Positions 2,427 to 24,207 are shown, counted from the stretch's first letter. The stretch: DNA of 35,894 bases from a virus (IMGVR_UViG_3300031521_000016:1-35894); one strand, 5' to 3'. Notes: generated from the letters alone by a model not told the origin. Numbers and translations: made by a program.

Positions 2427-2469
2427 TTATGATACAAAAATAACTAAAAACTAACAATTATGAAAACGC
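2427..2469 (-). promoter_or_regulatory. repeated phage promoter, copy 3
   Basis: GCGTTTTC-N19-TATTTTTGTATCATAA. Confidence 0.85.
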
Positions 2470-2900
2470 TAAAACCCAAATTTTTTGCTAAGTATCAAAC
2501 CTCTGTTATCTTGGAGCTTCCTTTCTGTATTTGCGTAATTAAGTTGCAATGTCCTACAGCGTAGTTCTACTTCGAATTTCATTTCTTTCAGAGCTTTTAG
2601 CATAGTATCAAATAAATAGTCTTCAGTAAACGTCTCTAGAGCATATTCTTCTATTTGTGACCATGATTTGGGCCATTTAGTTTTGTAACCTGTATAAGAC
2701 ATGACTACAATTTCATGTGTATTACCTTCTATGTCGATTTTTACTTCTGTGTCTTCATGAGTATCTTCTATTATGTAACTTGGGTTGAGTAACAACATAA
2801 TTCTAACACCTGAATCATAATAATTCATGATATAGAATTTATTTAGATACTGATATTCTTCAGTAAGCATAACTTTATCTCTTATCTTCTTGTAATGCAT
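2469..2900 (-). CDS. RG-FGF-tagged protein 1
   Basis: Ends NRGLILSKKFGF*; ATG at 2900 overlaps the upstream TGA (TGATG). Confidence 0.8.
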   Translation of the reverse strand: MHYKKIRDKVMLTEEYQYLNKFYIMNYYDSGVRIMLLLNPSYIIEDTHEDTEVKIDIEGNTHEIVVMSYTGYKTKWPKSWSQIEEYALETFTEDYLFDTMLKALKEMKFEVELRCRTLQLNYANTERKLQDNRGLILSKKFGF

Positions 2901-3325
2901 CAAAATCCGAATTTATTTGACAGTAATTTTCCTCTCATTTCATGCAATCTTTCATCAGTATTAGCATAAATAACTTTATATGAGTTCAGTTCTTTATCTA
3001 GAGAATCTTCTAGTGTTTTTATAGCTTCATTGAACAGTGATTTAGTTTTCCATTTATCTATTAATTTCCACATATCGTCATCTCTTTTCCACAAAGTTAG
3101 TCCACGCGAATCTTTATCTATATTGATATCTGAACTTTCATCTCCTCTACATTCTAATTCGTAACGAATATTCGGCAATTCTTTAAAATTACTTTTACTT
3201 GGATCTAACCTAATATCGATATCGAAAAAATCTTTATTTGCTACTATACCCGTTTTAACAACATAGAACTTCTTAAGTTGTTTCACTTTCTCTGATGAAT
3301 CATAAATTTCTTTCCAAGTTTCCAT
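2900..3325 (-). CDS. RG-FGF-tagged protein 2 (weak paralogue of protein 1)
   Basis: Ends YANTDERLHEMRGKLLSNKFGF*. Confidence 0.8.
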   Translation of the reverse strand: METWKEIYDSSEKVKQLKKFYVVKTGIVANKDFFDIDIRLDPSKSNFKELPNIRYELECRGDESSDINIDKDSRGLTLWKRDDDMWKLIDKWKTKSLFNEAIKTLEDSLDKELNSYKVIYANTDERLHEMRGKLLSNKFGF

Positions 3326-3338
3326 GATTTATATATGG

Positions 3339-3620
3339 CTAGAACCCAAACTTTCTACCTGCTAAAAGTCCTCTTTTAGCATGCATAAATTCTTCTACCG
3401 TTTTATATGGAGAGTTTTTGTATGCTACGTAAAATTCCACTGGACATCCTTCTATTTCAATAGGAGTGGCATTAGAGTAGTCTTTTTTCCAGAGTGTTTT
3501 CGGTGTGGAGATATAACAATCAGATATCATAAGCTTACCGGCTGGATGCCATATCTGATTACCGAGAGTGATAGAGCTAGTGCTCCATTTAGTAACTATT
3601 TGAAGTTGTTTATTTGTCAT
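3339..3620 (-). CDS. RG-FGF-tagged protein 3
   Basis: Ends EEFMHAKRGLLAGRKFGF*. Confidence 0.8.
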   Translation of the reverse strand: MTNKQLQIVTKWSTSSITLGNQIWHPAGKLMISDCYISTPKTLWKKDYSNATPIEIEGCPVEFYVAYKNSPYKTVEEFMHAKRGLLAGRKFGF

Positions 3621-4147
3621 TAAAATCCAAATTTAGAGCCTACGATTTTGCCTCTTGAGTTATACATTTTAGTGTCTGAGTTGACATAATCAACTTGTTT
3701 TCTTTTTAATTCGTCCAAATCGTTGGTTATTGATTCGATAACTTCTGATAATGCAATATCTAATAGAAGTAGCATCTCATCTTTAGACGGGTTGACTATT
3801 TTTTGGTTTGACTTTATCATCCAATAATTTTCATCAAAATCCCACTTTTCAGTAAGAATTTGTGATCTAGTAAGTTCAATATTATAAAGCCCCATGTTGA
3901 AGTTTCCATTTAGTGAACTTCTAAATCTATCTTCAATGAATTTTTCATGACGTTGATTAGTATACAAACTTTTAGAAGTATAGAGAAAATGTTCACCTTT
4001 GAGATAAATTCGTATATAGTGTATATGTTCTTCATCCGAAGAAAAAGTATTCGTGGTTGTTTCTATTCTAAAAAACTTACAGATATATTTCATTCTTTCC
4101 AAAGAATCCAATTCTAAGATCAGTTCAGTAAAATCTTGTCTAGTCAT
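3620..4147 (-). CDS. RG-FGF-tagged protein 4
   Basis: Ends SRGKIVGSKFGF*. Confidence 0.8.
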   Translation of the reverse strand: MTRQDFTELILELDSLERMKYICKFFRIETTTNTFSSDEEHIHYIRIYLKGEHFLYTSKSLYTNQRHEKFIEDRFRSSLNGNFNMGLYNIELTRSQILTEKWDFDENYWMIKSNQKIVNPSKDEMLLLLDIALSEVIESITNDLDELKRKQVDYVNSDTKMYNSRGKIVGSKFGF

Positions 4148-4283
4148 CAGATAGTAATGAAAGGATTATGATTGTTACACCAGCTATAGGATGTCCAAAA
4201 TAGCATAGTACTATACCTAACGTAAACATCGGATATGTTAATGCTCCGAGAATAGTCAAAATACACAAAAGACATGTCATCAT
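4140..4283 (-). CDS. small hydrophobic protein, 47 aa (not in ORF track)
   Basis: MMTCLLCILTILGALTYPMFTLGIVLCYFGHPIAGVTIIILSLLSDD; first gene after promoter copy 4; 8-nt overlap with next gene. Confidence 0.7.
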   Translation of the reverse strand: MMTCLLCILTILGALTYPMFTLGIVLCYFGHPIAGVTIIILSLLSDD

Positions 4284-4293
4284 ATACTTATTT

Positions 4294-4336
4294 ATTTTAT
4301 ACAAAAATAACAAAAAACAATCAATGCTTAAAACGC
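4294..4336 (-). promoter_or_regulatory. repeated phage promoter, copy 4
   Basis: GCGTTTTA-N19-TATTTTTGTATAAAAA. Confidence 0.8.
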
Positions 4337-4846
4337 CTAAAACCCAAATTTTTTACCCAATAGACTGCCTCTATTTGTGTGAACAAACTGATCGATATCT
4401 TGAGAATCTAAAAGCCTTGCTAATAATTGATGTTTTTCGTATATTAGAGCTTTAACTTCTTCACACATTGTTAATAGACTATCATACGAGTTTCTCTTGG
4501 CTGATATCACGATATCGCTTTTTTCATCTTCTATGTAGCTTTCGTCATCATCTTCTTTTTCAACTTTGAAATCATACATGTCTATGTCTATGTCATCTGA
4601 CGATATATCAGCTTTAAATTTACCTTCAAATTCTAATCCTTCTGATGGACCAGAAGTTCCAAGTTCACCAGCCAGTGTAATTATTTTAGTTTCTGGAAAA
4701 CATGCTATGTCAAAATTGAAATAAAAAACGTCTGGACGCTTATCAATATTAATGTTGATATCAGAAGATAGTTCGGAAAGTAGTGGCAGGATAAAGTTAT
4801 CGATATTATCTGCCTCAAAAAGGCTGAAGGGGAGAATACGTGGCAT
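4337..4846 (-). CDS. RG-FGF-tagged protein 5, acidic, with CTS-like N-terminus
   Basis: Starts MPRILPFSLFEA; ends NRGSLLGKKFGF*. Confidence 0.8.
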   Translation of the reverse strand: MPRILPFSLFEADNIDNFILPLLSELSSDININIDKRPDVFYFNFDIACFPETKIITLAGELGTSGPSEGLEFEGKFKADISSDDIDIDMYDFKVEKEDDDESYIEDEKSDIVISAKRNSYDSLLTMCEEVKALIYEKHQLLARLLDSQDIDQFVHTNRGSLLGKKFGF

Positions 4847-5515
4847 TTAAAATCCAAATTTTTTGCTTAGAGTTTTACCTCTTTTGAAATGCTTTATGAT
4901 ATCGAACTGTTCATATAGAGATTTACCTACTAATGAATCTATAAGCTGTGGCGATTCACCTAATTTGTCAAGTAATATAGGTGTCGCTTTCTGTATATTG
5001 TCAATATTTATGCTTATTTTATGACCATTTATGTAAATGATCTTATCTTGTGAAGTCCATGAAGCAGTCTGTGGTTTATCTTCTTTAGAATAGTGGTCAA
5101 ATGCAGTAACAACAGGCTCGCTACTGCTATGGAGTGGGTATATAAAGTTCCATTCAGTTAAATCCTTTTTTGCATCATCAGTGTATTCTAAAAATGCGAA
5201 TACATCGTGCAATTTCAGTATAATAGGTGCAATTTCTTTAGCTAATAGAATCAGTCTGATGGCATCTGCTGAAGTAAATGTGAATTTTCCATTTTTTGGA
5301 AGGTCTGCTAAAATTTTATCTGCTACACTGTTTGGACTATGATGATTATTAGCACACATGTAAATAATGGCATCTTGTGTGACTAAGAAACGCCAATTCA
5401 AGTCATCAAAAATATGAACATTGACTACTGTATGTCCTGCCGATGTATAAGCTTCGGTGAAAAGATTTATGTTAGCAGCTTTTAAATCACGACGGAAATC
5501 ATAAGATAGACTCAT
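4847..5515 (-). CDS. RG-FGF-tagged protein 6
   Basis: Ends KRGKTLSKKFGF*. Confidence 0.8.
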   Translation of the reverse strand: MSLSYDFRRDLKAANINLFTEAYTSAGHTVVNVHIFDDLNWRFLVTQDAIIYMCANNHHSPNSVADKILADLPKNGKFTFTSADAIRLILLAKEIAPIILKLHDVFAFLEYTDDAKKDLTEWNFIYPLHSSSEPVVTAFDHYSKEDKPQTASWTSQDKIIYINGHKISINIDNIQKATPILLDKLGESPQLIDSLVGKSLYEQFDIIKHFKRGKTLSKKFGF

Positions 5516-5517
5516 GT

Positions 5518-5533: not shown

Positions 5534-5536
5534 CAC

Positions 5537-6013
5537 TTAGAATCCGTAACGTTTACTTATAATCTTAGCTCTATTCTGTTCTCTGAAATTAGGTATCGTC
5601 AATCCACTTCTTAGCCAGTTTTCTATAAAGTCATCTTCTATCCCTGAAACACACCATCTAGCATAAGTACACCATCTGATTTCTCTTGCTAATGCAACAA
5701 GCCGACAAAGAATAGGATGTGGCAAAGCTCCATCTAAAAAAGTATGTTCTCCTTTTCGCCAAATCATGTTTATTGAAAATCTTGTATCTAACGTTTTGGT
5801 ATCAACAAAATATCCGGCACTTATATCGAAAAATACTTCATTTCCGTTAAATGAAATGCTATTCAATAAGTACCCATATTCGCCTAAACCTACATTTCTT
5901 GGGTACCATTTATAACCCACCTTATACCATCGTGGACGTATACCATGCATTGAGAATTTAGTTCTCGTACTTTTATTTACGTTGCTTCTATATGCATAGA
6001 TAAGAGCTTTCAT
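5537..6013 (-). CDS. RG-FGF-tagged protein 7
   Basis: Ends NWLRSGLTIPNFREQNRAKIISKRYGF*. Confidence 0.8.
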   Translation of the reverse strand: MKALIYAYRSNVNKSTRTKFSMHGIRPRWYKVGYKWYPRNVGLGEYGYLLNSISFNGNEVFFDISAGYFVDTKTLDTRFSINMIWRKGEHTFLDGALPHPILCRLVALAREIRWCTYARWCVSGIEDDFIENWLRSGLTIPNFREQNRAKIISKRYGF

Positions 6014-6324: not shown

Positions 6325-6526
6325 GATTTTTTATTTCGAAATGTTCAAAAAATTCAGAATCATTTAGTTGTTCATCATTGAATCCGTCGAACATTCGAGC
6401 TATGTTATAGTATTTATTTAGAATGTAATCTCCACAGTTCCACCACTGTGCAGTTTGAAAATTTAGATTAGTTGGATGAGTACCTTTGCACCATACCCTG
6501 AAGCCTTTTCCTATGCTAGAATCCAT
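6317..6526 (-). CDS. hypothetical protein
   Basis: 69 aa ORF overlap-coupled to both neighbours. Confidence 0.65.
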   Translation of the reverse strand: MDSSIGKGFRVWCKGTHPTNLNFQTAQWWNCGDYILNKYYNIARMFDGFNDEQLNDSEFFEHFEIKNRE

Positions 6527-7019
6527 ATTGAGTCGATTTTATTTTTCCACGTTTTAACTGTAATATTTTTTCGAAACCTATCCCCAGCTTTGATAGTCTC
6601 GTTATCTCTGACATTATCTCTTCATCATCTGCTGTACTCGATACTACTAACTTATAGAAAGGAGAAATAAGAATTAAGTTTGTGATGAATCGAAATTCAA
6701 ATGTAGTCTTTATGTTTATCCCCAATATTGCTACTTCATTTTGTGTAAATTCATTACAATCTATACTATCTTTTCTTACTTCGATATTGATCGATTTTTC
6801 AAGCTTGACATTTCGATATGTGCCCTTTAGCGATAAATTAAACCTTAAACCTGTGTCATTATTTATGATAAACACAATTTTTATTGTTCCAGTAAATAGA
6901 GTAGTATGTATTCTTTTTTCTTCTTGTACTAATTCTAGCCAACTAGGGTTGACTGTATACATCAAATTATTGAAGTAATAGTCTTCTTTTCCTGCTAGTG
7001 CATAAACATAGTGTCTCAT
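6516..7019 (-). CDS. RG-FGF-tagged protein 8
   Basis: Ends KRGKIKSTQYGF*. Confidence 0.8.
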   Translation of the reverse strand: MRHYVYALAGKEDYYFNNLMYTVNPSWLELVQEEKRIHTTLFTGTIKIVFIINNDTGLRFNLSLKGTYRNVKLEKSINIEVRKDSIDCNEFTQNEVAILGINIKTTFEFRFITNLILISPFYKLVVSSTADDEEIMSEITRLSKLGIGFEKILQLKRGKIKSTQYGF

Positions 7020-8242: not shown

Positions 8243-8244
8243 AG

Positions 8245-8530: not shown

Positions 8531-8573
8531 TTATGATACAAAAATAAACAATTTCTACATTATGCCAAAACGC
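8531..8573 (-). promoter_or_regulatory. repeated phage promoter, copy 5
   Basis: GCGTTTTG-N19-TATTTTTGTATCATAA. Confidence 0.9.
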
Positions 8574-9085
8574 TAAAACCCGTATTTAGTAGACATGACA
8601 AGTCCTCTTTTTTCATGCCGCATCTCTGGAGTTTTTAAATAGACACAGCCTCTAGTTTCTATGCCATCAACAAATTTTACCCATTCAATATATGCTTTCT
8701 GTATAGCATCTTTCCATCCTTCGAATGTACTTAAATCTTTGTCTATTCTTACAGTAGCTCCATTATTAAAACGAGTAAGTGATGTATTATCGTAAAGTAA
8801 AATAGATATTCCCAAAAATATTTCTCTAGCCGCTACATTTCCTTTTAACGTTAAAGGATCAGTATTGGTGTCATTAACGATTAGATTGTTGCCGATAGGT
8901 GTAGTGAAAATAGAAATTCCTCTATCATCTTTCGTAATATTTACTCTTAATCCTAAGTCTTTAAGTTTTTGAAATTCTTCGATATTCTCATACGGTTCAT
9001 ATACTGATACAGTAGATGCAATCTCTGAATATTGCTTTAGAGCTTCGGATAAATTATATTTATTCAATACTTCATCGTGTCCCAT
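8573..9085 (-). CDS. RG-FGF-tagged protein 9
   Basis: Ends KTPEMRHEKRGLVMSTKYGF*. Confidence 0.8.
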   Translation of the reverse strand: MGHDEVLNKYNLSEALKQYSEIASTVSVYEPYENIEEFQKLKDLGLRVNITKDDRGISIFTTPIGNNLIVNDTNTDPLTLKGNVAAREIFLGISILLYDNTSLTRFNNGATVRIDKDLSTFEGWKDAIQKAYIEWVKFVDGIETRGCVYLKTPEMRHEKRGLVMSTKYGF

Positions 9086-9391: not shown

Positions 9392-9949
9392 TTAGAATCC
9401 AAATGATTTTGAAACAATCGTACCTCGCTTTTCGTGACGTTCTTCAGGAGTAGAATAGAATTTATTTCCATTCTGTTCAAGTTCTTTTATCTTAAGTTTT
9501 GTTCTAGTGTATGCAGCTCTCATAGCCTTATTTAGATCATCTCTTGTGTAAAATCCGATATTTCGTGGATAGAGACTAGGTAACTGTATTCTAGAGATGC
9601 CTCTTCTATCGACATATTCTCCGCCCTTCCTAGTACAAGTTTCTGTAACTGTTATCTTATGATCAATCCAGATGGCAATTTTCCAATGCTCAGCAGAATA
9701 TTCTTTAATTGCAAGATATTTATGATCGAATGATACGTGCAATGAGTTTGAAGTAAGCTTATTTAATGTAACTCCTAGTTTTTCTAGAGCTTTGTAATAA
9801 TGATGATGTTCAATATTAGCAATCTCTTCAGGTTCAGAAATAATTTTAATATCATCCGGAAAAGTAGGGATTTTACTATTATCGTATACGGTTTGTATAT
9901 TCTTACAAAGCGACTTTGTAAACTTTAATTTTTTCTTTTTCATTTTCAT
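9392..9949 (-). CDS. RG-FGF-tagged protein 10
   Basis: ATG at 9949 (TAATG overlap); ends STPEERHEKRGTIVSKSFGF*. Confidence 0.8.
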   Translation of the reverse strand: MKMKKKKLKFTKSLCKNIQTVYDNSKIPTFPDDIKIISEPEEIANIEHHHYYKALEKLGVTLNKLTSNSLHVSFDHKYLAIKEYSAEHWKIAIWIDHKITVTETCTRKGGEYVDRRGISRIQLPSLYPRNIGFYTRDDLNKAMRAAYTRTKLKIKELEQNGNKFYSTPEERHEKRGTIVSKSFGF

Positions 9950-10182
9950 TAAGAACAACGTGCGTCTGATGAAGTTTCATAGATATTATTAACTATAATT
10001 TCGCAAACGGTTAACGTTCCGTCTTGAAAATTCTGATTAAATTCAGCCAAAGCATTCTCTTTTGCTTGTTCTTTTGCCTCCTTTTTATTTTTTTCTTCAA
10101 TAATAGATGTATAATTTTCCGAATCTTTGAAATTGTCTGCGTCAGTATAATAAACCGACGTCTCTGAATAATAAGTTTTCAT
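9949..10182 (-). CDS. hypothetical protein
   Basis: ATG at 10182 (MKTYYSET) behind promoter copy 6. Confidence 0.7.
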   Translation of the reverse strand: MKTYYSETSVYYTDADNFKDSENYTSIIEEKNKKEAKEQAKENALAEFNQNFQDGTLTVCEIIVNNIYETSSDARCS

Positions 10183-10198: not shown

Positions 10199-10241
10199 TT
10201 ATGATACAAAAATAAACAAATTGATCAACATTAAAAAACGC
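10199..10241 (-). promoter_or_regulatory. repeated phage promoter, copy 6
   Basis: GCGTTTTT-N19-TATTTTTGTATCATAA. Confidence 0.85.
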
Positions 10242-10759
10242 TAGAAACCAAATTTTTTGCTTATCATTATGGGTTTATATTTTAACATTGGATCTTTTTT
10301 GGACATCCATTCACTGTATGGAATGTCGATATTTCTGCCAAACATGAACCATGAAAATGGAGTAGAATTTCCGACTTTTTTCATTATGAGATTAGTAATA
10401 AGTGTATCAGAGCTTTTGACAATGTAACTATCTTTCACTTCTATATAGTGATCGACTCTTCTCATTTCTTTGATATGCTTTACTTTATCGACATTATAAT
10501 AGTTGAATACAAACATGATACGATTCAACTGTATCTTAAATATGATCGATACTAATTTTAACTTGCGGTTATCTGTGGGGTACCACTTATGTAATGCAGT
10601 TTGATAGTCTGGCATATCTATAATTTCATGCGTTATACTATTACCTGAAAACCACCAATCATATCTTTTCATGTCAGACTTCAAGTTTCTCAAGTTTTCG
10701 TGAACGAGGAAAAAATGAATAGTATCTCCGTCGTCACGAAATTGTTGAACAACTTTCAT
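10241..10759 (-). CDS. RG-FGF-tagged protein 11 (variant tag lacking RG)
   Basis: ATG at 10759 (MKVVQQF, ATGA overlap); ends YSEWMSKKDPMLKYKPIMISKKFGF*. Confidence 0.75.
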   Translation of the reverse strand: MKVVQQFRDDGDTIHFFLVHENLRNLKSDMKRYDWWFSGNSITHEIIDMPDYQTALHKWYPTDNRKLKLVSIIFKIQLNRIMFVFNYYNVDKVKHIKEMRRVDHYIEVKDSYIVKSSDTLITNLIMKKVGNSTPFSWFMFGRNIDIPYSEWMSKKDPMLKYKPIMISKKFGF

Positions 10760-11220
10760 TCTCCGCCTCCACCATCTCCGCCTCCGTCGCTGCCACAATC
10801 ACTACCCGCATCTGATGATACATCTGAAGAAGATTCGGAACCGACTTCTGATGATTCAGTATTGCCAACGTCTGTGCCTTCTTCTGTAGATACTTCTATC
10901 TCATTTTGAATATTGTCGGGTAAATCTTGAGTATCGATTGTTACTTCATTTTCAGGAGTCTGATTAGCCAATTCACTAGGAGTGCCCACTGTCCAAGAAA
11001 TGCTAGAAAAATTAGTTATAGGTTCTGACGATTTGCAATAATAGCTATCTCCATCTGACATAGTCATTAAGTACCAATAACTGAAGCCGTCATCGTCATC
11101 TGACATAGAATGTGAACCAGAATAAATTCGGTATTCAAGAACTTTCATTCTTTTATGATGCATATTACATGACATTATCATGAACATGCTAATAAGCAAA
11201 ATTAGAAGTTTTCGTGTCAT
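10756..11220 (-). CDS. putative lipoprotein with acidic Ser/Gly/Asp tail
   Basis: Signal-like MTRKLLILLISMFMIMSC (lipobox Cys); tail SSDAGSDCGSDGGGDGGGGE. Confidence 0.65.
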   Translation of the reverse strand: MTRKLLILLISMFMIMSCNMHHKRMKVLEYRIYSGSHSMSDDDDGFSYWYLMTMSDGDSYYCKSSEPITNFSSISWTVGTPSELANQTPENEVTIDTQDLPDNIQNEIEVSTEEGTDVGNTESSEVGSESSSDVSSDAGSDCGSDGGGDGGGGE

Positions 11221-11420
11221 TTCTTTTTTGTTTTTAATTCGATTAGTATAGTTCCTTTTTTATTCGTTATTATTGCTGTATCGCCCGTAGTAGTCATGAC
11301 TTTTACTTGATCTACATTTTGAACGGCATTAGATTTAGGGGCTAATGTAGCTATTCCTACTATTATAAGACATGCTATTACAATACAACCCATTCCAAAA
11401 TATTCATTATGTCTATTCAT
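11217..11420 (-). CDS. small membrane protein
   Basis: N-terminal hydrophobic helix GMGCIVIACLIIVGIATLA. Confidence 0.7.
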   Translation of the reverse strand: MNRHNEYFGMGCIVIACLIIVGIATLAPKSNAVQNVDQVKVMTTTGDTAIITNKKGTILIELKTKKK

Positions 11421-11899
11421 TAATGGGTTGCAGTTTTAGAATGTAAATAGTCTATTACTGCAAGTATCAAAGCTCCACCTAAGAAGATTCCATGAATATA
11501 AGTCTGTTTATAGATTATGTCCCATGATATCTTTTCAGCTGCGATGAATGTTTGTAATAAATGTATCATTGTTACACCAGTTATAGACGTGGCAATCTTG
11601 ACTTTTAGACCGCCGCTACTTATCTTCTCAGACGATTCTTCATGCGTTTTACTTACGAAAGAGTTATAACTACCAGTTATAATCATTTTCACTAAGTTCG
11701 CTATCATGACTACGTCTACTGCTTCAAGTGTGGTCATCAGTTCTTCACTGGTAATATGTCCGTTCTTCATGAAACAGTACATAAGAAATAACAGTGTCCA
11801 AAATAACTTCAGATAGAATGGAATTAAGAGCCATTTACTAAAGAAAATGATTTTTTCTACTGTTGTTTTGATCAAGTCTCCTGCGTAAGGTGTTTTCAT
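11420..11899 (-). CDS. yqhA: YqhA/UPF0114-family membrane protein
   Basis: SKWLLIPFY...LEAVDVVMIANLVKMIITGSYNSFVS...LKVKIATSI...IHLL matches the UPF0114 pattern. Confidence 0.75.
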   Translation of the reverse strand: MKTPYAGDLIKTTVEKIIFFSKWLLIPFYLKLFWTLLFLMYCFMKNGHITSEELMTTLEAVDVVMIANLVKMIITGSYNSFVSKTHEESSEKISSGGLKVKIATSITGVTMIHLLQTFIAAEKISWDIIYKQTYIHGIFLGGALILAVIDYLHSKTATH

Positions 11900-14311: not shown

Positions 14312-14614
14312 TTACATACCAAATTTTGTCCCAATTACGAGTCCTCTTTTCTCATATTTGAACTGATCAATAGTCATTCCACTTTTGTACCATTCCACGG
14401 CAAGAGAATCGTCTATTTTTCCTTTTTTCCAGATGTCAGATTTTACAATTATTTTGTAGATTGTATCATCTAACTCTTCTATCGTATTACCGGCAGTACT
14501 ATGCAATGGTGATACCATTGATCCTGTATAATCTACGATAGAATTATACAAGTTGTATAGTCGTTGAGAATCGTAGCCTTGTGTATTATATTTTGGTTCC
14601 ATTTTTATTTTCAT
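14312..14614 (-). CDS. RG-FGF-tagged protein 13
   Basis: Ends WYKSGMTIDQFKYEKRGLVIGTKFGM*. Confidence 0.8.
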   Translation of the reverse strand: MKIKMEPKYNTQGYDSQRLYNLYNSIVDYTGSMVSPLHSTAGNTIEELDDTIYKIIVKSDIWKKGKIDDSLAVEWYKSGMTIDQFKYEKRGLVIGTKFGM

Positions 14615-15248: not shown

Positions 15249-15488
15249 CTAATCTAAAAATTTTTTACATTTACAGTTTTGATCATGTCTATCACGCCAA
15301 GAACTTACATAACACCACTTACCTACAATATTTGACTTATAATGCTTAGTGCTACAATTTTTACATGTTCTAACAGTTCCATTGTCGATATGTTTATGAT
15401 CAAACATATTTACAACGTATTTCTTGTAAATTACGAAAATGATCCCTATGACTAGTAATGCTAGTCCAGTAAATGTTTTAGAATCCAT
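15249..15488 (-). CDS. small membrane-anchored Cys-rich protein
   Basis: N-terminal TM segment, CKNC...CKC. Confidence 0.7.
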   Translation of the reverse strand: MDSKTFTGLALLVIGIIFVIYKKYVVNMFDHKHIDNGTVRTCKNCSTKHYKSNIVGKWCYVSSWRDRHDQNCKCKKFLD

Positions 15489-15939
15489 ATTTTTTACTTT
15501 TTAAAATTCCTCGTTTTTTGAATATAAATTCATCAGCTGTCATATTCGATACTTTGAATTCATTCATAATTTTCTCAAATTCATTTCTGTGCATATAGTT
15601 GAATGTTACAATAATTTTATATGAGTCTTCGCTGTATATGTATAGACATTTATCTTCAGCTGCAGCCTTTTTACCGTAACGTTTAAGTGTCACATGTTTA
15701 CATACAGGCAAATATTCAATTTGATTTACATATGCATAAAATTGAATTTCACCTTTATCCATAAATAGTCTAATGCTACTTGACATATACATAAAGTCAT
15801 GCACTACACATTCCGATATTAGTACTACATACTTATCAGCTAACATATTAGAAAATATATACTCAAATATTCCTGCATGTGTAGTATGCATGGTATCACT
15901 TAAATATGCAACTAATTCATCTTTATCGTATATTTTCAT
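15478..15939 (-). CDS. RG-FGF-tagged protein 14 (possibly leaderless)
   Basis: ATG at 15939, 4 nt after the -7 box; ends KRGILKSKKYGF*. Confidence 0.8.
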   Translation of the reverse strand: MKIYDKDELVAYLSDTMHTTHAGIFEYIFSNMLADKYVVLISECVVHDFMYMSSSIRLFMDKGEIQFYAYVNQIEYLPVCKHVTLKRYGKKAAAEDKCLYIYSEDSYKIIVTFNYMHRNEFEKIMNEFKVSNMTADEFIFKKRGILKSKKYGF

Positions 15940-15978
15940 AATACAAAAATAACACATTTTATCAAAAGTGCAAAACGC
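15936..15978 (-). promoter_or_regulatory. repeated phage promoter, copy 8
   Basis: GCGTTTTG-N19-TATTTTTGTATTATGA (contains the start codon). Confidence 0.85.
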
Positions 15979-16491: not shown

Positions 16492-17238
16492 ATGAAACTA
16501 ACTGATGAACAAACAGAATTTCTTAATAAAGTATGTGATCATAAATGGACAGAAAAAGACGGTTTAGTTGAGGTAGATGGTAACGTATCTATTATTAGTT
16601 ACAAATATCCTAGGCTTCCCGTAATGTTTGGTACAGTTTCAGGTATGTTTAAAATGACTAACTGTATGGTCGAATCTTTAGATGGATTTCCAACTTACAT
16701 AGGCAATAAATGTCTTTTAACGAATATAGATGTAACTGAAATAGTAAATCTATGCAAAGTGAAATACAGAATTGTCATAAATACTTGTAAGAAACTAAAG
16801 AAGATAAAAAATTTACACGCTGAAACTATTTCTATCACATTCTGTGACGTACTGGAAAAAATTGAATTAGAAGAATCAGTTGTAGATACATTTAGTATTG
16901 CAGATTGCAAAAAGATAAAAAATTTACACGGATTTCCTAAAACTGTGACTAAAATGTTCAATATTTATCAATGTGAAGGTTTAGAAGACTTATCAGGGAC
17001 TATAGAACATACTGATACATTTAGAGTATCTGATTGTAAGAAATTGCGTTCAGGTAAAGGAGCTTGTAAGAACGCTAATAAATATGATATAGATCTACGT
17101 TTAATAAATAATATTGATGAACTTAAACTGTATCGCGATGACGATATCTATGCTCAATGGCTACATTCTGGAGAACCAGCTGAAGGTTTCTTGGAGAAAA
17201 AAAGAGGATTCATATTGGGAAGAAAGTTTGGCTTCTAA
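16492..17238 (+). CDS. RG-FGF-tagged protein 15, LRR-like repeat protein
   Basis: Repeats VESLDGFP, IKNLHGFP, LEDLSGT; ends QWLHSGEPAEGFLEKKRGFILGRKFGF*. Confidence 0.8.
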   Translation: MKLTDEQTEFLNKVCDHKWTEKDGLVEVDGNVSIISYKYPRLPVMFGTVSGMFKMTNCMVESLDGFPTYIGNKCLLTNIDVTEIVNLCKVKYRIVINTCKKLKKIKNLHAETISITFCDVLEKIELEESVVDTFSIADCKKIKNLHGFPKTVTKMFNIYQCEGLEDLSGTIEHTDTFRVSDCKKLRSGKGACKNANKYDIDLRLINNIDELKLYRDDDIYAQWLHSGEPAEGFLEKKRGFILGRKFGF

Positions 17239-17507
17239 AACCCGAACCGTTTAGCTACTATTTCTCCTCTTATTTTAAGTAAGAAAGCATCTAAACTTAA
17301 ATGACAATTTTCTTTATTTTTCCACTTCACGTAATTTTCTGGACTTAAATCACTCTGTGCAAACTCTTTAAGTATATTCTGTGCAATTTGATATTGATCA
17401 TTTGAAGTGAAATGTAGATATACGTCACCTGTATAAAATTCTACTCTGCCAAATAACACTATAGTAGCTGATCGTAAATCTGATACTAATAATGTGAAAT
17501 CGACCAT
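17235..17507 (-). CDS. RG-FGF-tagged protein 16
   Basis: ATG at 17507 (MVDFTLLV) avoids overlap with the divergent gene; ends IRGEIVAKRFGF*. Confidence 0.7.
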   Translation of the reverse strand: MVDFTLLVSDLRSATIVLFGRVEFYTGDVYLHFTSNDQYQIAQNILKEFAQSDLSPENYVKWKNKENCHLSLDAFLLKIRGEIVAKRFGF

Positions 17508-17522
17508 AATAAAAAGTAAAAA

Positions 17523-18173
17523 ATGAATAAAAATACAATTCGTAAATTTAATAAACAGATGACTACAATAAAGGGTGCAGTTATGATAACTGAAGAGTCT
17601 TTTAAAAAGGGAATAGCTACAGTTACAAGAATATTGAATGATGGAAAAGAACATAAGATCGTCTTGCCTCTGCCAAGTTTGTCTGGTGCTATAATTGATG
17701 GTAACTATGAATACTATGTAAGTGGAGCGGACATAAAACATGCACCGTTGACTGTGTCGAAACAGATAAACATAGGCTACAATAAATTAGAGTCTCTTAA
17801 AAATTGTCCTGATACTTGTGAATCAATAAACTTATCTTCTATTGAATCTCTAAAAACTTTGCATGGTATATCTAAATATATCGAATCTGAATTGAATATC
17901 AGAGACTGTAAAGATATTGAATCATTAGATGGCTCTCCATCCGAAGTACAATACTTTATATTATTTAATGTACCAAAATTGAAAACATTAAAATTTGCTC
18001 CTATTGCTGATACCTACAGAATCTTAAAATGTCCCGATGTACCAGATGAAGAAATAGATTTAAGCAAAAATGATAAAGAGTTATTTCATAAATGGTTAAA
18101 GTCAGGTGAAGACTTTAAAGATTTCATGTATAAGAAAAGAGGTATAACCCTCGGTAAAAAATTTGGGTTTTAA
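17523..18173 (+). CDS. RG-FGF-tagged protein 17, LRR-like repeat protein
   Basis: Repeats LESLKNCP, LKTLHGIS, IESLDGSP, LKTLKFAP; ends KWLKSGEDFKDFMYKKRGITLGKKFGF*; start could be a later Met. Confidence 0.8.
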   Translation: MNKNTIRKFNKQMTTIKGAVMITEESFKKGIATVTRILNDGKEHKIVLPLPSLSGAIIDGNYEYYVSGADIKHAPLTVSKQINIGYNKLESLKNCPDTCESINLSSIESLKTLHGISKYIESELNIRDCKDIESLDGSPSEVQYFILFNVPKLKTLKFAPIADTYRILKCPDVPDEEIDLSKNDKELFHKWLKSGEDFKDFMYKKRGITLGKKFGF

Positions 18174-18257: not shown

Positions 18258-19085
18258 TTATGAATTTAGCATATCTGTTTTTATTTTCGATACTAATTCC
18301 AAATGAGCTGGTCCAAACGGAGTCCATGCAATACCCATTTCTTTAAGATCATATTTTTGAACTACTGTACTATAATCGGTTACTCCTTCTGGATGTCCAA
18401 TTAAATAAATAACATCGGCTAATTCGGTAGCAAGATGTAAATCATGAGTTGAAAAAATGATAGTATTTAATTCATCACTTGATTGAATTAATTCGAAAGC
18501 CTCTTTTACACTTTCAATATTTCCAACATCTAAACCAGAAAATGGTTCGTCGAATATCATGAAATGCTTTGATGTAAGAAGCTGTTCAATAATTGCTGTA
18601 CGTTGTCTTTGACCACCGGATAACTCGCAAGGGTATTTATCTTTATGTTCGATTAGTCCCCATTTGGTTAACTGTTCATCGATAAGTTTCGTTTTTTCTT
18701 CTTTTGGTAACATACATTTTTTCAGTGCATAGAACATGATTTGATTCACTGTCTTATGTCTAAATAATGTATATTTTTGATCAACAAAACCTACATCTCC
18801 TTCAGCTACTTCTTTAGCAGCTTCTGGTTGTCCAGGCATTGAAGTAGAAATTAAAACTCTTCCGGAAATTGGTTTATCAAGTCCAGATAAAGCTCTGAAT
18901 AATGTAGATTTTCCTCTTCCAGAGCGTCCTACTACAGCTATAACTTGTCCAGTGGCTTTGACACCTTCACGAACCACATCTTTTTCGACAATCGTAACAT
19001 TTTTCAAAACACCTTTTCCACTATAACCGACTGAAATATTGTCGAGATAGAAAATTGTCTGTTTAAGTTCGTAATTATAGCTCAT
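18258..19085 (-). CDS. ABC transporter ATP-binding protein (NitT/TauT-like)
   Basis: Walker A GRSGRGKST, signature LSGGQRQR, Walker B MIFDEPF, switch THD. Confidence 0.93.
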   Translation of the reverse strand: MSYNYELKQTIFYLDNISVGYSGKGVLKNVTIVEKDVVREGVKATGQVIAVVGRSGRGKSTLFRALSGLDKPISGRVLISTSMPGQPEAAKEVAEGDVGFVDQKYTLFRHKTVNQIMFYALKKCMLPKEEKTKLIDEQLTKWGLIEHKDKYPCELSGGQRQRTAIIEQLLTSKHFMIFDEPFSGLDVGNIESVKEAFELIQSSDELNTIIFSTHDLHLATELADVIYLIGHPEGVTDYSTVVQKYDLKEMGIAWTPFGPAHLELVSKIKTDMLNS

Positions 19086-19855
19086 ATTTTTGAAAATCTA
19101 AAAGACATTTTACGTATTGAAGTTAGAATATAGTCAAGGAGTATACCGATTGATAGAATAATGATCTGTAATGCAATAACCCTTCCTTGATTACCTAACT
19201 TATCTGAATTTTTAATTAGAAATCCTAAACCTCCGGCTGCAGCTAATAAACTTTCAACCGTTATTAGCATCATCCAAACGATAGCCAAATTTTGTCGAAT
19301 ACTTTCGATTACATAGTCGAATCTTCCTTTTATGACAACTTCATAAAGAATTTCCCATCTACTGCAACCTAATGCTCTGGCATGGTCAAATTCCTCTTGT
19401 GGAATATCTTTGATGACACCTAATATAGAAGTTGCAAAGAACGTACTCATGAATACCACGAGGATAGATACTTGTGTTATTCTGGCATCCGATATCAAAA
19501 TAGATAAGTAGAATGCGATACCTGCAAGAGGTAAGTATCTAAACTTTGAAATAAATGAAGAGATCGGTTGTAAAATTGGAACAGGTGATAAATAACAAAA
19601 TGATAATGAAAATAAGACCGATATTAAAACAGCTTGACCACATAGTGATAAAGAGCTTCCGATATGAACAGTTAAACCTTCATTCCATAATGCACCGAAA
19701 CCTTCTAAGACTTGAATTGGCGTTGGAAAAATGTGCGTTTGACCAATGTAGCTTGATGTGACCCAAAGAGTAAGAATAGAAATTAACCATCCTAAGCGGA
19801 TGGTTAATTCTGTGGAACTCTTTATTTTTTCAAAAGGGCTTAATATTCCTTTCAT
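19082..19855 (-). CDS. ABC transporter permease (NitT/TauT-like)
   Basis: Multiple TM segments, FPTP, EAA-loop-like EEFDHARALGCSRW, GGLGFLI. Confidence 0.9.
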   Translation of the reverse strand: MKGILSPFEKIKSSTELTIRLGWLISILTLWVTSSYIGQTHIFPTPIQVLEGFGALWNEGLTVHIGSSLSLCGQAVLISVLFSLSFCYLSPVPILQPISSFISKFRYLPLAGIAFYLSILISDARITQVSILVVFMSTFFATSILGVIKDIPQEEFDHARALGCSRWEILYEVVIKGRFDYVIESIRQNLAIVWMMLITVESLLAAAGGLGFLIKNSDKLGNQGRVIALQIIILSIGILLDYILTSIRKMSFRFSKI

Positions 19856-21663
19856 TATTTCATGATGTTAATTTCGCATCTACGATTCTTTGCTCTACCA
19901 GCTGCCGTTACATTAGTTGCAATAGGGTTGGCTTCACCTAATCCATCGACCTTTTGGAAACGTGTTTCATCGATGCCTTTATTAGCAAGATATGTTTGAA
20001 CCGCTTTAGCTCGTTGTTTAGATAGAGTTAAGTTTGTGTTATCATCTCCTGCATTATCAGTATACCCGGTGATTACTACTTTAGAATGTTCTCCTTGAAC
20101 CAATAGGCCGTAGATAATTTCTAGTTCTTTTGTACCGATTATGTTAGCAGAACCTGAAGCGAAATTGATTTGCCATTGTCCTGATGCCATAACTGTAGTT
20201 TGTGTAGCAGTATAGTCTTGTTTTGTTACAGAACCGGCATCTACATCGGTGATAGATTTTAAGAAGTATAAATTCACAGCTTCTGAATAAGGAATGATAC
20301 CACCTTTTACAGATTCATTAAAGCCACATGGATTTAATTCTACAAGATATTTAGAAATTTGTTCATATACTGTCTTGTATCTATTTGTACCATCGGTTAG
20401 TCCAAAGTATTGCATTGCATCAGCATAATTCAATGCTCTTGTTCCACCGATATTGTATTGTACTCCGGCTTTTGTTTTATGAATACCTTTGAACATTGTA
20501 TACCAGTATTCAGGAGATTCAAAGTTGTAAGTTTTACATACAACTTCTGATCCGAATCGTGCCCATTCATCATATTGTTTTACTTGGTTAGAAGCAGTAT
20601 ATGCATTCTTTAAAAGTGCTACGACTTGTTTTTCATGTGCCACTGCCCATTCTTTAACTACTACAATAGAAGTTGCCATTTGATTAGTGAACTCTTTAGT
20701 TGAGATTACATCTGTATATCCTGATAAAGCATCGAATGCAATTTTATCTCCCGGAGTCCATGTGGTAGCACCATTGATTTTGATATTTACTGTGTTACCA
20801 GTCAATTTACCATCTTTTACTTCTTTAAGTGGAACAGTAAAACCTGTGTTTTGTGATTTAATAAGCTCTTTTACAGAGTTGATATAGTCATCATTTTCAG
20901 AAGGAGTAAAGTTGATAGCATCAGGGTCATATGTTTTTACATCCGGATTAACTTTGATGTTATTAGCAAAGGCAAAGTTGATAGCTACTACCCAGTCACC
21001 ATCTCCTACTACTGATGAAATAAGACAACCTTTCATTAATTGTGGATTTTTCTTCCATGCATCTGGTCCGATTAATTTATCTTCACCGTCCGACATTCCA
21101 ATTGCTCCAATATTTTGTAAGTGATACTTATCTTTACCGAATTTATCGTTTAAAGCCTGTTGACCGGTTGCTATATAAAATGGAACACCATCACCCATGA
21201 TAGATACTGCGAATGCCGATTTGTCAGCATCTGGGTATTCTTTACCGGCTGCTAGTTCTTCTACGAACTTAAGTTGCATATTACGTAAATCCGATACTCC
21301 GTCGATACGTACAATTTCTAAATTAAGGTCGGATGCTTCATTTAATGATCCTTTTGTAGTACGAGGTCCACCATTAGCAGCAATCATTCCGATGTTTCCG
21401 TTCCATGCATATTCGGCGATACGAATAAGTGGTTTCTTTGCGGCCGAAGTAGAAGGAGTTTGTGAAGGGGTTTCAAGTTTTGCAGCTTTTTGCATGTTAT
21501 CGATATGATCTTTACTCAACGATAATCCAGCAAGTCTTTTAGCTGCATCAATACGAAGTCCCGGTGAAAGCCATGCGATGGCACCTAATACAATTGCTAA
21601 ACCGATTGTTACAATGACTGCTTCAGCACCACTGGTCAATTTAGTCTTTAAAATTTTTCCCAT
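19855..21663 (-). CDS. membrane-anchored substrate-binding protein fused to an OmpA-like peptidoglycan-binding domain
   Basis: N-terminal TM; periplasmic binding-protein-like core; C-terminal INFASGS...ITGYTDNAG...NLTLSKQRAKAV...NRRCEI. Confidence 0.85.
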   Translation of the reverse strand: MGKILKTKLTSGAEAVIVTIGLAIVLGAIAWLSPGLRIDAAKRLAGLSLSKDHIDNMQKAAKLETPSQTPSTSAAKKPLIRIAEYAWNGNIGMIAANGGPRTTKGSLNEASDLNLEIVRIDGVSDLRNMQLKFVEELAAGKEYPDADKSAFAVSIMGDGVPFYIATGQQALNDKFGKDKYHLQNIGAIGMSDGEDKLIGPDAWKKNPQLMKGCLISSVVGDGDWVVAINFAFANNIKVNPDVKTYDPDAINFTPSENDDYINSVKELIKSQNTGFTVPLKEVKDGKLTGNTVNIKINGATTWTPGDKIAFDALSGYTDVISTKEFTNQMATSIVVVKEWAVAHEKQVVALLKNAYTASNQVKQYDEWARFGSEVVCKTYNFESPEYWYTMFKGIHKTKAGVQYNIGGTRALNYADAMQYFGLTDGTNRYKTVYEQISKYLVELNPCGFNESVKGGIIPYSEAVNLYFLKSITDVDAGSVTKQDYTATQTTVMASGQWQINFASGSANIIGTKELEIIYGLLVQGEHSKVVITGYTDNAGDDNTNLTLSKQRAKAVQTYLANKGIDETRFQKVDGLGEANPIATNVTAAGRAKNRRCEINIMK

Positions 21664-21703
21664 GTTTTTGTTTTTAAATGATTATTTTTTAATATGAATT
21701 ATT

Positions 21704-21746
21704 TTATGATACAAAAATAATACAATTACGTCTATTTGCAAAACGT
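21704..21746 (-). promoter_or_regulatory. repeated phage promoter, copy 9
   Basis: ACGTTTTG-N19-TATTTTTGTATCATAA. Confidence 0.9.
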
Positions 21747-21770
21747 AATTGTATTATTTTTGTAAATATT

Positions 21771-22877
21771 TTAGAAAATGCTTCCTAATGAACCGAGAGA
21801 ATCTTTATCAGTAGATGATAATTTATAGTCAGGGTTATTATACTTTTTAGTATCAGTAGTTGCTTTTTCTCCGGCAGTAATACTATTTGCCAACTTATCA
21901 AGATTAGCATAAAGATCATCACTATTTAAGTTATAGTCTTTAGTAGCAGTATCGATATCCTGAAGATTAGTTGTAGTTATTGCAATATCGGCAGTAATTG
22001 CACTTGATACACATTCGATAGCATACTCAACTTCCCAACCGGTAGTAAATAAGATAGCATCTTTTGCTGCAGTCGTAGCATCTTTCGATTTTTCAGCAAA
22101 GTCATAATCACGTTTTAGCATATCTACTGTAGCATCGAAGTCAGCAATTTTGATATCCATAGAAGTTGCCACCATAGTCAATTTTTGACCAAGTTTCTTC
22201 ATGATAGTTGCACGAGACATGTATTTCTGTACAAAATTCTGTTCTTGTTCTAATTGAGCGGCTAAACGTGTACTTTTAGAAACAAGGGTAAGAAGTTCAG
22301 CGCTATCATTAACATAGTCATCTTCCTCTTTAGCTTTTACACCACCTTCTAAAAATCGTCTATCTAAGTCATCATGAAGAGCTTTTGCTTGATCTCGTAA
22401 TCTAACGATTTCTTTTAGATCTTTTTCAGCATCTCTTTCATTTTTCTTAGCTTCTACTTCCATATCTCTTCGGAGATTTTCAATTTTAGCTTTAGAAAGA
22501 TAAAATTTATCTCTATTTGCGAGTAAACCTACTCGTTTATTTGCTAATTCACCGAGTGGATCATATTGTATAATCGATTTATGAATAGCTCTAGTTAATA
22601 ATCGTAAGCCTCTGATGATATTTGGTATCATCATAATTACAAATACAAGAAATGCACCGGTAGCTACTAATGCAATAGCCTTGCCAAGATATATGAAAAG
22701 TGGTGGTAGAACATATTTGAAGATAAGGAATCCAGCGAGTCCAAATACAGCTAGTTTAATAAACCAGAAGAGATTTTTTTCACCTTTTCGGAATACGTCT
22801 ACTTGTTTAGTTACATTCTCAGGAAAGTGTTGCATAAAAGGCAACTGTTGCAAACCATTACTTACATTGTTTGTCAT
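21771..22877 (-). CDS. membrane-anchored long coiled-coil protein (PspA-like architecture)
   Basis: Two N-terminal TM helices then more than 250 aa of heptad-rich helix. Confidence 0.65.
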   Translation of the reverse strand: MTNNVSNGLQQLPFMQHFPENVTKQVDVFRKGEKNLFWFIKLAVFGLAGFLIFKYVLPPLFIYLGKAIALVATGAFLVFVIMMIPNIIRGLRLLTRAIHKSIIQYDPLGELANKRVGLLANRDKFYLSKAKIENLRRDMEVEAKKNERDAEKDLKEIVRLRDQAKALHDDLDRRFLEGGVKAKEEDDYVNDSAELLTLVSKSTRLAAQLEQEQNFVQKYMSRATIMKKLGQKLTMVATSMDIKIADFDATVDMLKRDYDFAEKSKDATTAAKDAILFTTGWEVEYAIECVSSAITADIAITTTNLQDIDTATKDYNLNSDDLYANLDKLANSITAGEKATTDTKKYNNPDYKLSSTDKDSLGSLGSIF

Positions 22878-22891
22878 CTTTTTATTTTATT

Positions 22892-23617
22892 TTAGATTGT
22901 TGAAAGATTATTTTTTACTTTTACTAATGAAGTCGTAATATGTTCTTTTGCCATATCGTTAGCTGCGAGCTTTAATTTTATTTCATTAAGCTCAGGATCA
23001 AATTTACTATCGATAGTGGCAAGTTCGGCTGTTTTATTTCCGAGTTGAGTTTGCAACGTTGATATTTGTTCAGTCAATGACTGAATATCGGTAGTTAAAT
23101 TCCGGGTGTCTGTTTCCTTTTGAGTAGCTATTGCAGCTGCTTTTAAATTCCCATCAGTATCGAAAGTTGTGTGAATGTTGTCGATCTCCTTGATATAAAA
23201 ATCGGCTTGTTCCAATAAAGTTTCTTTCGTTACAGATTTGTCCATTCTTACGGCCATTCCAAGTCCCATAGTATAAACTTGTGGATTATCTATACCCATT
23301 TCTGATACAGATTGGTAGAACTCGAAGAAGTCGTATCCAGGTTGATTTAATGCTTCAAACCTCTTATCATATACCTCAATAATTTTATCCATAAATGGAT
23401 TACCTACCTGTGTAGGTTGAGGTTGTGAAAATGATGTTGCAGCTGGTGGAACAAATGATGTTGCAGCCGGTGTAACGGGGAATGAAGTCGCAGAGGGAGC
23501 AGCAGTAGTAACGGGAAATGAAGTTACTGGTGGGGCAGGTGTTGCTTTTACTTTAGCTTCTTCTTCTGCTGCTGGGGCTTCAAAAATTGCATTTTTAATA
23601 ATGTCTTTAAAACTCAT
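22892..23617 (-). CDS. hypothetical protein with Pro/Ala/Thr linker and C-terminal coiled coil
   Basis: Four TSF repeats in the linker; GYDFFEFY core; coiled-coil tail. Confidence 0.75.
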   Translation of the reverse strand: MSFKDIIKNAIFEAPAAEEEAKVKATPAPPVTSFPVTTAAPSATSFPVTPAATSFVPPAATSFSQPQPTQVGNPFMDKIIEVYDKRFEALNQPGYDFFEFYQSVSEMGIDNPQVYTMGLGMAVRMDKSVTKETLLEQADFYIKEIDNIHTTFDTDGNLKAAAIATQKETDTRNLTTDIQSLTEQISTLQTQLGNKTAELATIDSKFDPELNEIKLKLAANDMAKEHITTSLVKVKNNLSTI

Positions 23618-23688
23618 CGTTAATTATTTTTGGTGGATTATTTTTTTGAATTAGATAAATATAACAAATATACACGCTTAGAAAAAAT

Positions 23689-24207
23689 TTAGAACCCAAA
23701 TTTAGCACCTGCTACAAATCCGCGTTTCTTTTCTGAGAATTCATCAGGTGTCATACCTGATTCTAACCATGCTAAGAAGATATCTTCTTGTATTGTAACA
23801 TTTTTATGCTTATTCAGATAATCTATAGCCATTATCGTTGAATCTTCAGTATATTTTTTATAAAATGTGGTATCGTACACAGACAGGTATTGTGACCAAT
23901 CTTTTTTATATTCCCATGTAGCTATAGTATAAATTTTAGACCTATTAGTTGATTCTACGGCAGCTTGTTTAGTAAGCATTGTAGAAGTGAATTTTTCGGG
24001 TATAGGTTTTAAGACATTATATTTACCAGGTGTATACTTATCCATCTGTAAATATTTAAGATGACAAAATTTTATTCTTATGCTATCTACAGTAGAGTTT
24101 GCTCTGTCTAAGCCATTAGCTATAGCAGTAAGGTCACGTCGATAAATATCTTTACCAATGTGACTATTTATGTATAGCTTTATATGTGAATATAAAGAAT
24201 CGGTCAT
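23689..24207 (-). CDS. RG-FGF-tagged protein 18, possible winged-helix N-terminus
   Basis: Ends AWLESGMTPDEFSEKKRGFVAGAKFGF*; STVDSIR...KYLQ...PGKY..LKPIP is wHTH-like (inference). Confidence 0.8.
   Translation of the reverse strand: MTDSLYSHIKLYINSHIGKDIYRRDLTAIANGLDRANSTVDSIRIKFCHLKYLQMDKYTPGKYNVLKPIPEKFTSTMLTKQAAVESTNRSKIYTIATWEYKKDWSQYLSVYDTTFYKKYTEDSTIMAIDYLNKHKNVTIQEDIFLAWLESGMTPDEFSEKKRGFVAGAKFGF

Follow-up and report, generated by a model that had tools for sequence, protein, structure and literature searches.

Why do so many otherwise unrelated proteins encoded on a single phage genome fragment end in the same few residues? The question is raised by a 35,894-nucleotide stretch of viral DNA, referred to here in its full length as the window, which makes up the first 35.9 kb of a 140,106-bp IMG/VR record (IMGVR_UViG_3300031521_000016; 32.7% GC; about 57% complete according to CheckV). 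An earlier reading of this DNA (the original prediction) had listed 18 open reading frames (ORFs) with a shared 11-residue C-terminal tag and had proposed a modular tag that delivers many effectors to one hub, with a capsid packaging signal among the candidates. The central result of our analysis is that the tag belongs to a portable, strictly C-terminal module, carried on unrelated bodies and restricted, as found, to a small clade of uncultured T4-like phages.

The tag itself proved to be exactly where it had been reported. All 18 ORFs, designated here by their coordinates, end in R-G-x-[ILV]-x-[SGA]-x-K-[FY]-G-F directly before the predicted stop, and the deviations are those listed beforehand, namely RA in 5537, KP replacing RG in 10241, Q (6516) or S (9392) at position -4, and M at -1 in 14312. 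The remainder of the 140-kb contig encodes six additional carriers (41940-43346, 57478-57900, 86031-86528, 102522-103055, 135946-136446, and 136449-136925), which brings the total to 24 of about 236 ORFs, or about 10%, and the tail is terminal in all 24 copies. Indeed, the strict motif occurs 21 times in a six-frame translation of the contig, and a stop codon follows directly in 21 of 21 cases. Scores against a hidden Markov model (HMM) of the tail fall into two clean groups, with carriers at 28-50 bits and every other ORF of the contig at 5.6 bits or below. All four glycine codons are in use at -2 among the 24 copies, the stop codons comprise 14 TAA, 7 TAG, and 3 TGA, and identical residues are written with differing codons in 841 of 1635 comparisons between tails (51%). 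Selection therefore acts on the peptide and not on a DNA repeat, which agrees with the original argument for selection on the peptide and its free end. The bodies ahead of the tail were likewise correctly described as unrelated, since BLAST and family HMMs link only the pairs 16492/17523 and 135946/136449 (the latter outside the window). Their isoelectric points range from 4.1 to 10.2, and a simple hydropathy scan detected neither a transmembrane segment nor a signal peptide in them.

How far does the conserved unit extend? When the tails are aligned from the right, weaker conservation continues upstream to about -26 or -32, through a stretch reading W-L-x-S-G-M-T-x-D-E-F-x-x-K-K that leads into the RG core. 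The module can be described as a core of about 14 residues, H-x-K-R-G-x-[ILV]-x-[GSA]-[KR]-x-[FY]-G-F-COOH, with, as a rule, two short helices ahead of it (W-L-x-S-G-[LM]-[ST]-x-[ED]-[ED]-F), and core and helices together are predicted to form a mini-domain of about 32 residues. AlphaFold2 (AF2) modelled an alignment of 46 tails as three short helices at residues 2-12, 16-22, and 24-32, with a predicted local distance difference test score (pLDDT) of 88.7. In a full-length model of the carrier at 16492-17238 (pLDDT 94.1; predicted template modelling score, pTM, 0.88), the helices of the module occupy residues 217-226, 230-236, and 238-245 behind a solenoid body, with pLDDT values of 87-93. Small residues stand at -10, -6, and -2 of the last helix. 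In these models the 11 residues first noted, real and terminal as they are, make up only the last predicted helix and the G-F end of a larger unit.

This unit has no catalogued counterpart in the resources searched, and the original statement that the tag is not a described motif holds. Neither Pfam searches of the 46 tails (E up to 10) nor an HMM search of PDB sequences (best E 0.41) gave a significant match to the module, Pfam and PHROGs searches of whole carriers returned none to it either, and PHROGs searches with another six carriers and four proteins encoded nearby were likewise empty. With the 34-residue model as query, Foldseek found nothing in PDB, a VIA-wide structure search returned generic helical hairpins alone (Z ≤3.9), and the ESM Atlas gave nothing usable. 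Literature searches did not recover a description of the motif.

The structural data bear on several explanations of what the module does. One is a timed degron, to be recognised by a protease of the host (ClpXP, ClpAP, or a tail-specific protease, for example). The tail shares with some ClpX C-terminal motifs its strictly terminal position, its hydrophobic end, and its basic residues. Degrons, however, are short and disordered, and the module has about 32 conserved residues for which helices are predicted with confidence. Nor is there any reason why a conserved helicase, one of the carriers described below, should be given a degron, and we regard this explanation as highly improbable. Searches for PDZ_2 and Peptidase_S41 readers gave no match in the contig, which is about 57% complete. 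Even harder to credit is an amphipathic membrane-targeting helix of the MinD type. Although the composition of the tail (K, R, G, F, and L/I) recalls the C-terminal membrane-targeting sequence of MinD, the hydrophobic moment of the last 11 residues is 0.30 against a background of 0.31 for other C-termini of the contig, and in a second lineage (lineage 2) the tails have lysine at -7 and glutamate at -4; the module is accordingly probably not a membrane anchor.

The modules might instead pair with one another, or serve as a structural cap that stabilises the C-terminal end of each body. Helical-hairpin dimerisation domains make up the weak structural neighbours found for the 34-residue model (Z ≤3.9), in line with pairing, but these matches are at noise level and random heteromers among more than 24 proteins would make little biological sense, while a cap should be specific for a fold and the module sits on bodies of unrelated folds. 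We consider this a very doubtful explanation; a complex prediction with two copies of the module scored 0.02, a value obtained without controls and counted neither way. A somewhat better, though still improbable, case can be made for a generic nucleic-acid clip, in which a basic last helix, with glycines that allow close approach to the backbone, would tether carriers non-specifically to DNA without any protein hub. The mean net charge of the last 13 residues is +3.7, the module is appended to a DNA helicase, and the internal proteins of T4 are embedded in the packaged DNA (PMC3012670). The preceding 21 residues, however, are net acidic (-1.4), lineage 2 has glutamate at -4, searches of Pfam, PDB, and structures revealed no likeness to any known DNA-binding domain, and a strictly invariant G-F end is hard to explain from charge alone.

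Two protein families illustrate the portability of the module. Once the module is removed from the sequences, 31 carriers drawn from 19 loci fall into one leucine-rich repeat (LRR)-like family that includes 16492 and 17523 of the window, and this solenoid family is the commonest carrier across lineages. Its members align as a variable number of repeats of about 21 residues (L-x-x-L-x-G-x-P-x-x-V-x-G-x-F-x-C) and match the Pfam family LRR_EndoS weakly; the AF2 model of 16492-17238 is a beta-solenoid whose top matches in PDB and AFDB are mostly of LRR type, with weak scores. The bodies of 16492-17238 and 17523-18173 show the repeat and are LRR-like solenoids, in line with the LRR-like label that the original prediction gave to some of the bodies. 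Because LRR homologues without the module occur in LR756501, in Lak phages, and in two Vibrio phages, the module was probably added to the family within a sub-lineage. In LR756501.1, a 735-kb huge phage, three tandem LRR-like paralogues of 289, 277, and 238 amino acids (aa) lie at 233218-239619 (our locus L172), and they have neither the module nor any other common tail.

The second family provides the clearest evidence of portability. In another contig, a 535-aa UvrD-type superfamily 1 helicase (L166:3513-5120; PF00580, E = 6e-23) ends in the module. Of its nearest relatives, seven clusters (533-535 aa) continue past the helicase with a linker of about 20 residues and a tail region of about 30, in which the HMM recognised the module in six of the seven, whereas orthologues of 484-493 aa with 72-79% identity stop directly after the helicase core; the module-bearing forms are thus longer by an extension of about 45 residues. 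An enzyme that acts on DNA uses the module, and the original remark that no recognisable enzyme carries the tag is correct for the window and not for the wider family. Beyond the LRR family and the helicase, the carriers include more than 20 orphan bodies. One of these, the 468-aa carrier at 41940-43346, has a module-bearing homologue in locus L171, where it lies inside a conserved four-gene block. Its 521-aa neighbour with a CTS-like start (CTS, capsid targeting sequence) was considered as a possible hub and set aside, as it is also present in module-less relatives and is not specific to the module.

Where else does the module occur? A profile of 34-residue tails, searched against 1.84 billion representative proteins at a cut-off of E ≤0.001, matched 41 proteins, and in all 41 the match ends at the last or second-to-last residue. 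About half come from other metagenome contigs, and one group of these is near-invariant, reading d-L-L-x-x-W-L-x-S-G-L-S-I-E-D-F-L-H-K-K-R-G-T-I-K-G-K-E-F-G-F. A scan of JGI metagenome contigs added 19 further loci with GC contents of 32-47%. The contig loci examined number 26 (L139-L145 and L153-L171), several being overlapping copies of one phage, and together they contain 48 module matches, 46 of them terminal, and the two non-terminal ones have altered ends (...EFGILT and ...EFRF). Carrier genes cluster in these contigs too, for example as five of seven genes in L140 and three of three in L144. The HMM scan that the original prediction had suggested thus found the tail consistently at C-termini and matched no characterised domain; as for relatives, it found the module in other contigs. 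The module profile gave no match in LR756500-504 or Lak-A1, in the same search that returned 23 matches in the phage's own genome as a positive control, and tblastn with two tails found none in 50,697 GenBank phage records. Two pattern scans of IMG/VR gave nothing beyond chance, their sole yield being an unrelated repeat that reads ...KRGRIFLRKFGF in a stop-filled frame. A word-indexed search with one tail region returned the query itself alone, and a search covering 185,000 prokaryote species, each represented by one genome, gave a single match, attributable to chance. By portal protein, the nearest GenBank relatives of the source contig are the uncultured huge phages LR756500-504 (34-44% identity), together with Prevotella Lak phages and, more distantly, Tenacibaculum phage PTm1. 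The contig also encodes a T4 gp15-like gene, a family-B DNA polymerase in two ORFs, and a deoxynucleoside monophosphate (dNMP) kinase.

Do carriers bear other signals? In the other lineages, an MKxIKxFEEF-type start, M-K-x-I-K-x-F-E-E-F-(x-N-E), is present on 23 of 36 complete carriers and on 6 of 105 non-carriers from the same loci. This start is reminiscent of the T4 CTS, which is the sole element common to the diverse T4 internal proteins (PMC3012670). In the source contig the two signals sit on different proteins. None of 23 scored carriers has a CTS-like start, while about ten other proteins begin with M-[KR]-x-x-K-x-[FY]-[DE]-[DE]-[FY]-x-N-E and have no module. CTS-like proteins are encoded at contig positions 45249-46814, 55590-55970, 90823-91140, and 122971-134064, and within the window by a 150-aa ORF without the module at 1326-1778 on the minus strand (MEHVQLFEEY...). 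Carrier 16492 of the window starts exactly where the motif ends in its homologues. A gp21-like match in the contig is weak (E = 0.001) and below the cut-off.

These N-termini are central to the question of whether the module is a virion packaging or ejection signal, holding its carriers on a component of the capsid interior, portal, or tail for delivery with the DNA. The carriers are diverse, fast-evolving, small, and encoded in arrays, as are the T4 internal proteins that have a shared address tag alone in common (PMC3012670); in sister lineages they are also CTS-like and so may be virion proteins, and carrier genes lie within neck, portal, and terminase modules in L141, L155-157, and L167. 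Nevertheless, a second signal would be redundant on proteins that are already CTS-like, all 24 carriers of the source contig are without a CTS-like start even though such starts exist in the same contig, and the 535-aa helicase bears the module without a CTS. We regard packaging as rather unlikely, because the sister-lineage carriers already have a separate CTS-like N-terminus, and this part of the original proposal is weakened. Should the N-terminal motif be a capsid address, some other function must fall to the module, one that would be needed by possibly injected and newly made proteins alike. The carrier gene directly upstream of the large terminase gene in L141 was also considered as a small terminase and rejected, its body being a member of the LRR family.

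The module is probably neither a capsid signal nor a sliding-clamp tail. The split family-B DNA polymerase of the contig lies outside the window at 129652-131034 and 116839-118020, about 11.6 kb apart, and its C-terminal half (116839-118020) ends in ...STQLF and lacks the module. FEN homologues in L142 and L159 end in ...STALF and a 400-aa protein at 136941-138143 ends in ...ITALF, so that the clamp-binding consensus of this clade is likely [ST]-x-L-F-COOH; no clamp gene was found in the contig, itself about 57% complete. Outside the window, a 102-aa ORF at 109906-110214 ends in ...PDDNNLPF, which resembles the acidic tail found on bacterial SSB (D-D-x-x-[IL]-P-F), and could be a small SSB or an SSB-tail mimic. 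A family of hydrophobic proteins of 111-117 aa encoded near a clamp-loader gene (L142:6177-6512 and L159:12916-13269) ends in ...GQKLFGL or ...KNKFFGF, a loose echo of the module end that may be coincidental.

What, then, might the module be for? The reading we prefer, with about an even chance of being right, is that it acts as a docking handle through which varied bodies, effectors or enzymes, reach a single partner in the infected cell. This partner would more likely be a protein hub, or else DNA. The parallels that the original prediction drew with ClpX docking on ClpP and with SSB tails are analogies. The handle would serve proteins made after infection in this phage and possibly capsid-injected proteins in the sister lineages. 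Several points weigh against docking. Neither the sequence searches nor the models point to a partner for the module, and, with the contig about 57% complete, a reader encoded by the phage might be located on the part that is missing. Some carriers in other contigs retain only the last 14 or so residues (H-x-K-R-G...F-G-F), which suggests that the two preceding helices may be dispensable and that the core of about 14 residues is probably the functional part; the three-helix fold is itself a prediction from 46 related tails. As for the N-terminal signal, the CTS counts are not independent, in that most CTS-positive carriers belong to the one LRR family, and the identity of the motif as a CTS is proposed by analogy with T4 alone (PMC3012670).

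It is tempting to go further and to see in the module the address label of a phage effector-targeting system, in which one host or phage hub reads a free ...K-x-F-G-F helix, an extension of the docking idea that we find possible and rather less convincing. LRR binders, a helicase, and orphan effectors would then be dozens of interchangeable bodies on one hub, some of them injected by way of the N-terminal signal and others made after infection, and new effectors would be recruited by gaining a 3' cassette of about 15-45 residues.

If the module is a docking handle, its importance may lie in what it could say about proteins of otherwise obscure role. About a tenth of the ORFs of this fragment bear one uncatalogued C-terminal unit, and many orphan proteins may thus share a destination; to identify the partner would be to learn where dozens of orphan phage proteins act, all at one stroke. 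A natural comparison for what the module contributes is offered by the helicases and the LRR family, both of which exist with and without it. In sister lineages, the joint presence of an N-terminal capsid-type signal and a C-terminal handle on the same proteins suggests a two-address architecture for possibly injected effectors, for which we found no description in the literature. A portable handle of about 34 residues could also serve as a tethering tag, should its partner be found.

Within the window, most carriers are encoded on the minus strand, and they are given here with the module taken as the last 34 codons of each and with bit scores from the module profile search of the phage's own genome. 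On this strand they begin with 2469-2903 (144 aa, 143 aa in the public gene call; module 2472-2573; 44.4 bits; tail ...NRGLILSKKFGF), 2900-3325 (141 aa; module 2903-3004; 48.8 bits; ...MRGKLLSNKFGF), 3339-3620 (93 aa; module 3342-3443; 46.2 bits; ...KRGLLAGRKFGF), and 3620-4147 (175 aa; module 3623-3724; 48.1 bits; ...SRGKIVGSKFGF). These are followed by 4337-4846 (169 aa as the longest ORF; module 4340-4441; 43.7 bits; ...NRGSLLGKKFGF), 4847-5515 (222 aa; module 4850-4951; 42.8 bits; ...KRGKTLSKKFGF), the RA variant at 5537-6013 (158 aa; module 5540-5641; 50.3 bits; ...WLRSGLTIPNFREQNRAKIISKRYGF), and 6516-7019, with Q at -4 (167 aa; module 6519-6620; 38.4 bits; ...KRGKIKSTQYGF). Next come 8573-9085 (170 aa; module 8576-8677; 49.3 bits; ...KRGLVMSTKYGF), 9392-9958, with S at -4 (188 aa; module 9395-9496; 47 bits; ...KRGTIVSKSFGF), and 10241-10798, with KP for RG (185 aa, start uncertain; module 10244-10345; 46.9 bits; ...YKPIMISKKFGF). 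The longest ORF of the last of these begins MWQRRRRRWWRRRM, and its start overlaps an ORF at 10756-11220 that encodes a 154-aa acidic protein rich in Ser, Asp, and Gly; the true start of the carrier is probably further downstream.

Further along the same strand are 12415-12990 (191 aa, 169 aa in the public call; module 12418-12519; 51.2 bits; ...YRGKLVSPKFGF), 14312-14614, which ends in FGM (100 aa; module 14315-14416; 53.8 bits; ...WYKSGMTIDQFKYEKRGLVIGTKFGM), 15478-15957 (159 aa, 153 aa in the public call; module 15481-15582; 49.5 bits; ...KRGILKSKKYGF), 17235-17741 (168 aa as the longest ORF; module 17238-17339; 45.5 bits; ...IRGEIVAKRFGF), and 23689-24207 (172 aa; module 23692-23793; 50.8 bits), which has the canonical full form of the module and headed the alignment that was folded. 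The two LRR-family members are on the plus strand: 16492-17238 (248 aa; module 17134-17235), the beta-solenoid with its three-helix module, and 17523-18173 (216 aa; module 18069-18170; 48.8 bits), whose body matches the family HMM at E = 8e-38. For some carriers the start of the longest ORF is probably too far upstream, and public gene calls are shorter, at 80 aa for 4337-4846 and 90 aa for 17235-17741 (about 17235-17507); with the latter call the apparent overlap with 17523-18173 disappears. Counts of TATAAATA and TAnnTTTG as promoter motifs gave no usable timing signal.

Other genes of the window are of more familiar types. A UPF0114-family membrane protein (PF03350, E = 1e-12) is encoded at 11420-11899, amid the carrier array. 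An importer-type ABC pair, consisting of a BPD_transp_1 permease (19082-19855) and an ATPase (18258-19085; 76% DNA identity to the huge phage LR756500.1), adjoins a gene for a 602-aa protein with a C-terminal OmpA domain (19855-21663), and the same trio is present in another module-bearing contig. Genes for the dNMP kinase (30669-31511), a UDP-GlcNAc 2-epimerase (33426-34430), and a GT2 glycosyltransferase (34427-35383) are grouped together and may have a role in sugar or nucleotide modification.

A common address on unrelated proteins is not without parallel. The CTS of the T4 internal proteins IPI-III is likewise a short conserved peptide on diverse, small, fast-evolving proteins, but it stands at the N-terminus, spans about 10 residues, and is removed by the prohead protease (Rao and Black, 2010; PMC3012670). 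Although a CTS-like motif co-occurs with the module on the same proteins in sister lineages, the module is unrelated in sequence to the CTS, about 14-32 residues long, predicted to be helical, and also present on CTS-less proteins; in place of an N-terminal MKTYQEFIAE-like sequence with an [LI]-x-E cleavage end, all 24 carriers of the contig and all 41 from the databases have it at the C-terminus. Among phages, several different proteins may also share an extreme C-terminal aromatic end, as in the clamp-binding tails of gp43, gp33, and gp55 of T4 and RB69, which end in F-x-F and dock on one hub. These tails combine acidic with hydrophobic character and have no structure in the free state, and in the clade studied here the polymerase and FEN proteins bear ends of their own in place of the module. 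Substrates of type IV and type I secretion systems offer a further parallel, in that one machine recognises unrelated effector bodies by a signal at their very C-terminus, which is short, often basic, and not cleaved off. The module is unrelated to these signals in sequence, the ABC pair of the window is of importer type, and no link to a secretion system was evident, no search for secretion components having been made.

A further likeness is to the villin headpiece (VHP, PF02209; HP35, PDB 1VII/1YRF), which is eukaryotic and without detectable homology to the module, and is offered here as an analogy only. As an actual relative it was rejected, with hhalign giving a probability of 0.7% for the alignment of the module (alignment A3) with HP35 (letters checked against PDB 1VII), no VHP among the Pfam matches of the 46 tails (E up to 10), and no villin headpiece chain among the Foldseek or VIA neighbours, all of which have Z ≤3.9. 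Even so, both units occupy about 35 residues at the very end of the protein and have three short helices of similar length, a G-M-T-x-x-x-F stretch, and a basic ...K-x-G-x-F-COOH end, and the AF2 helix layout of the module resembles what we take to be the layout of HP35. The headpiece is likewise portable and serves to dock proteins with varied bodies on a single polymer, F-actin, much as the module described here may bring its many bodies to one partner.

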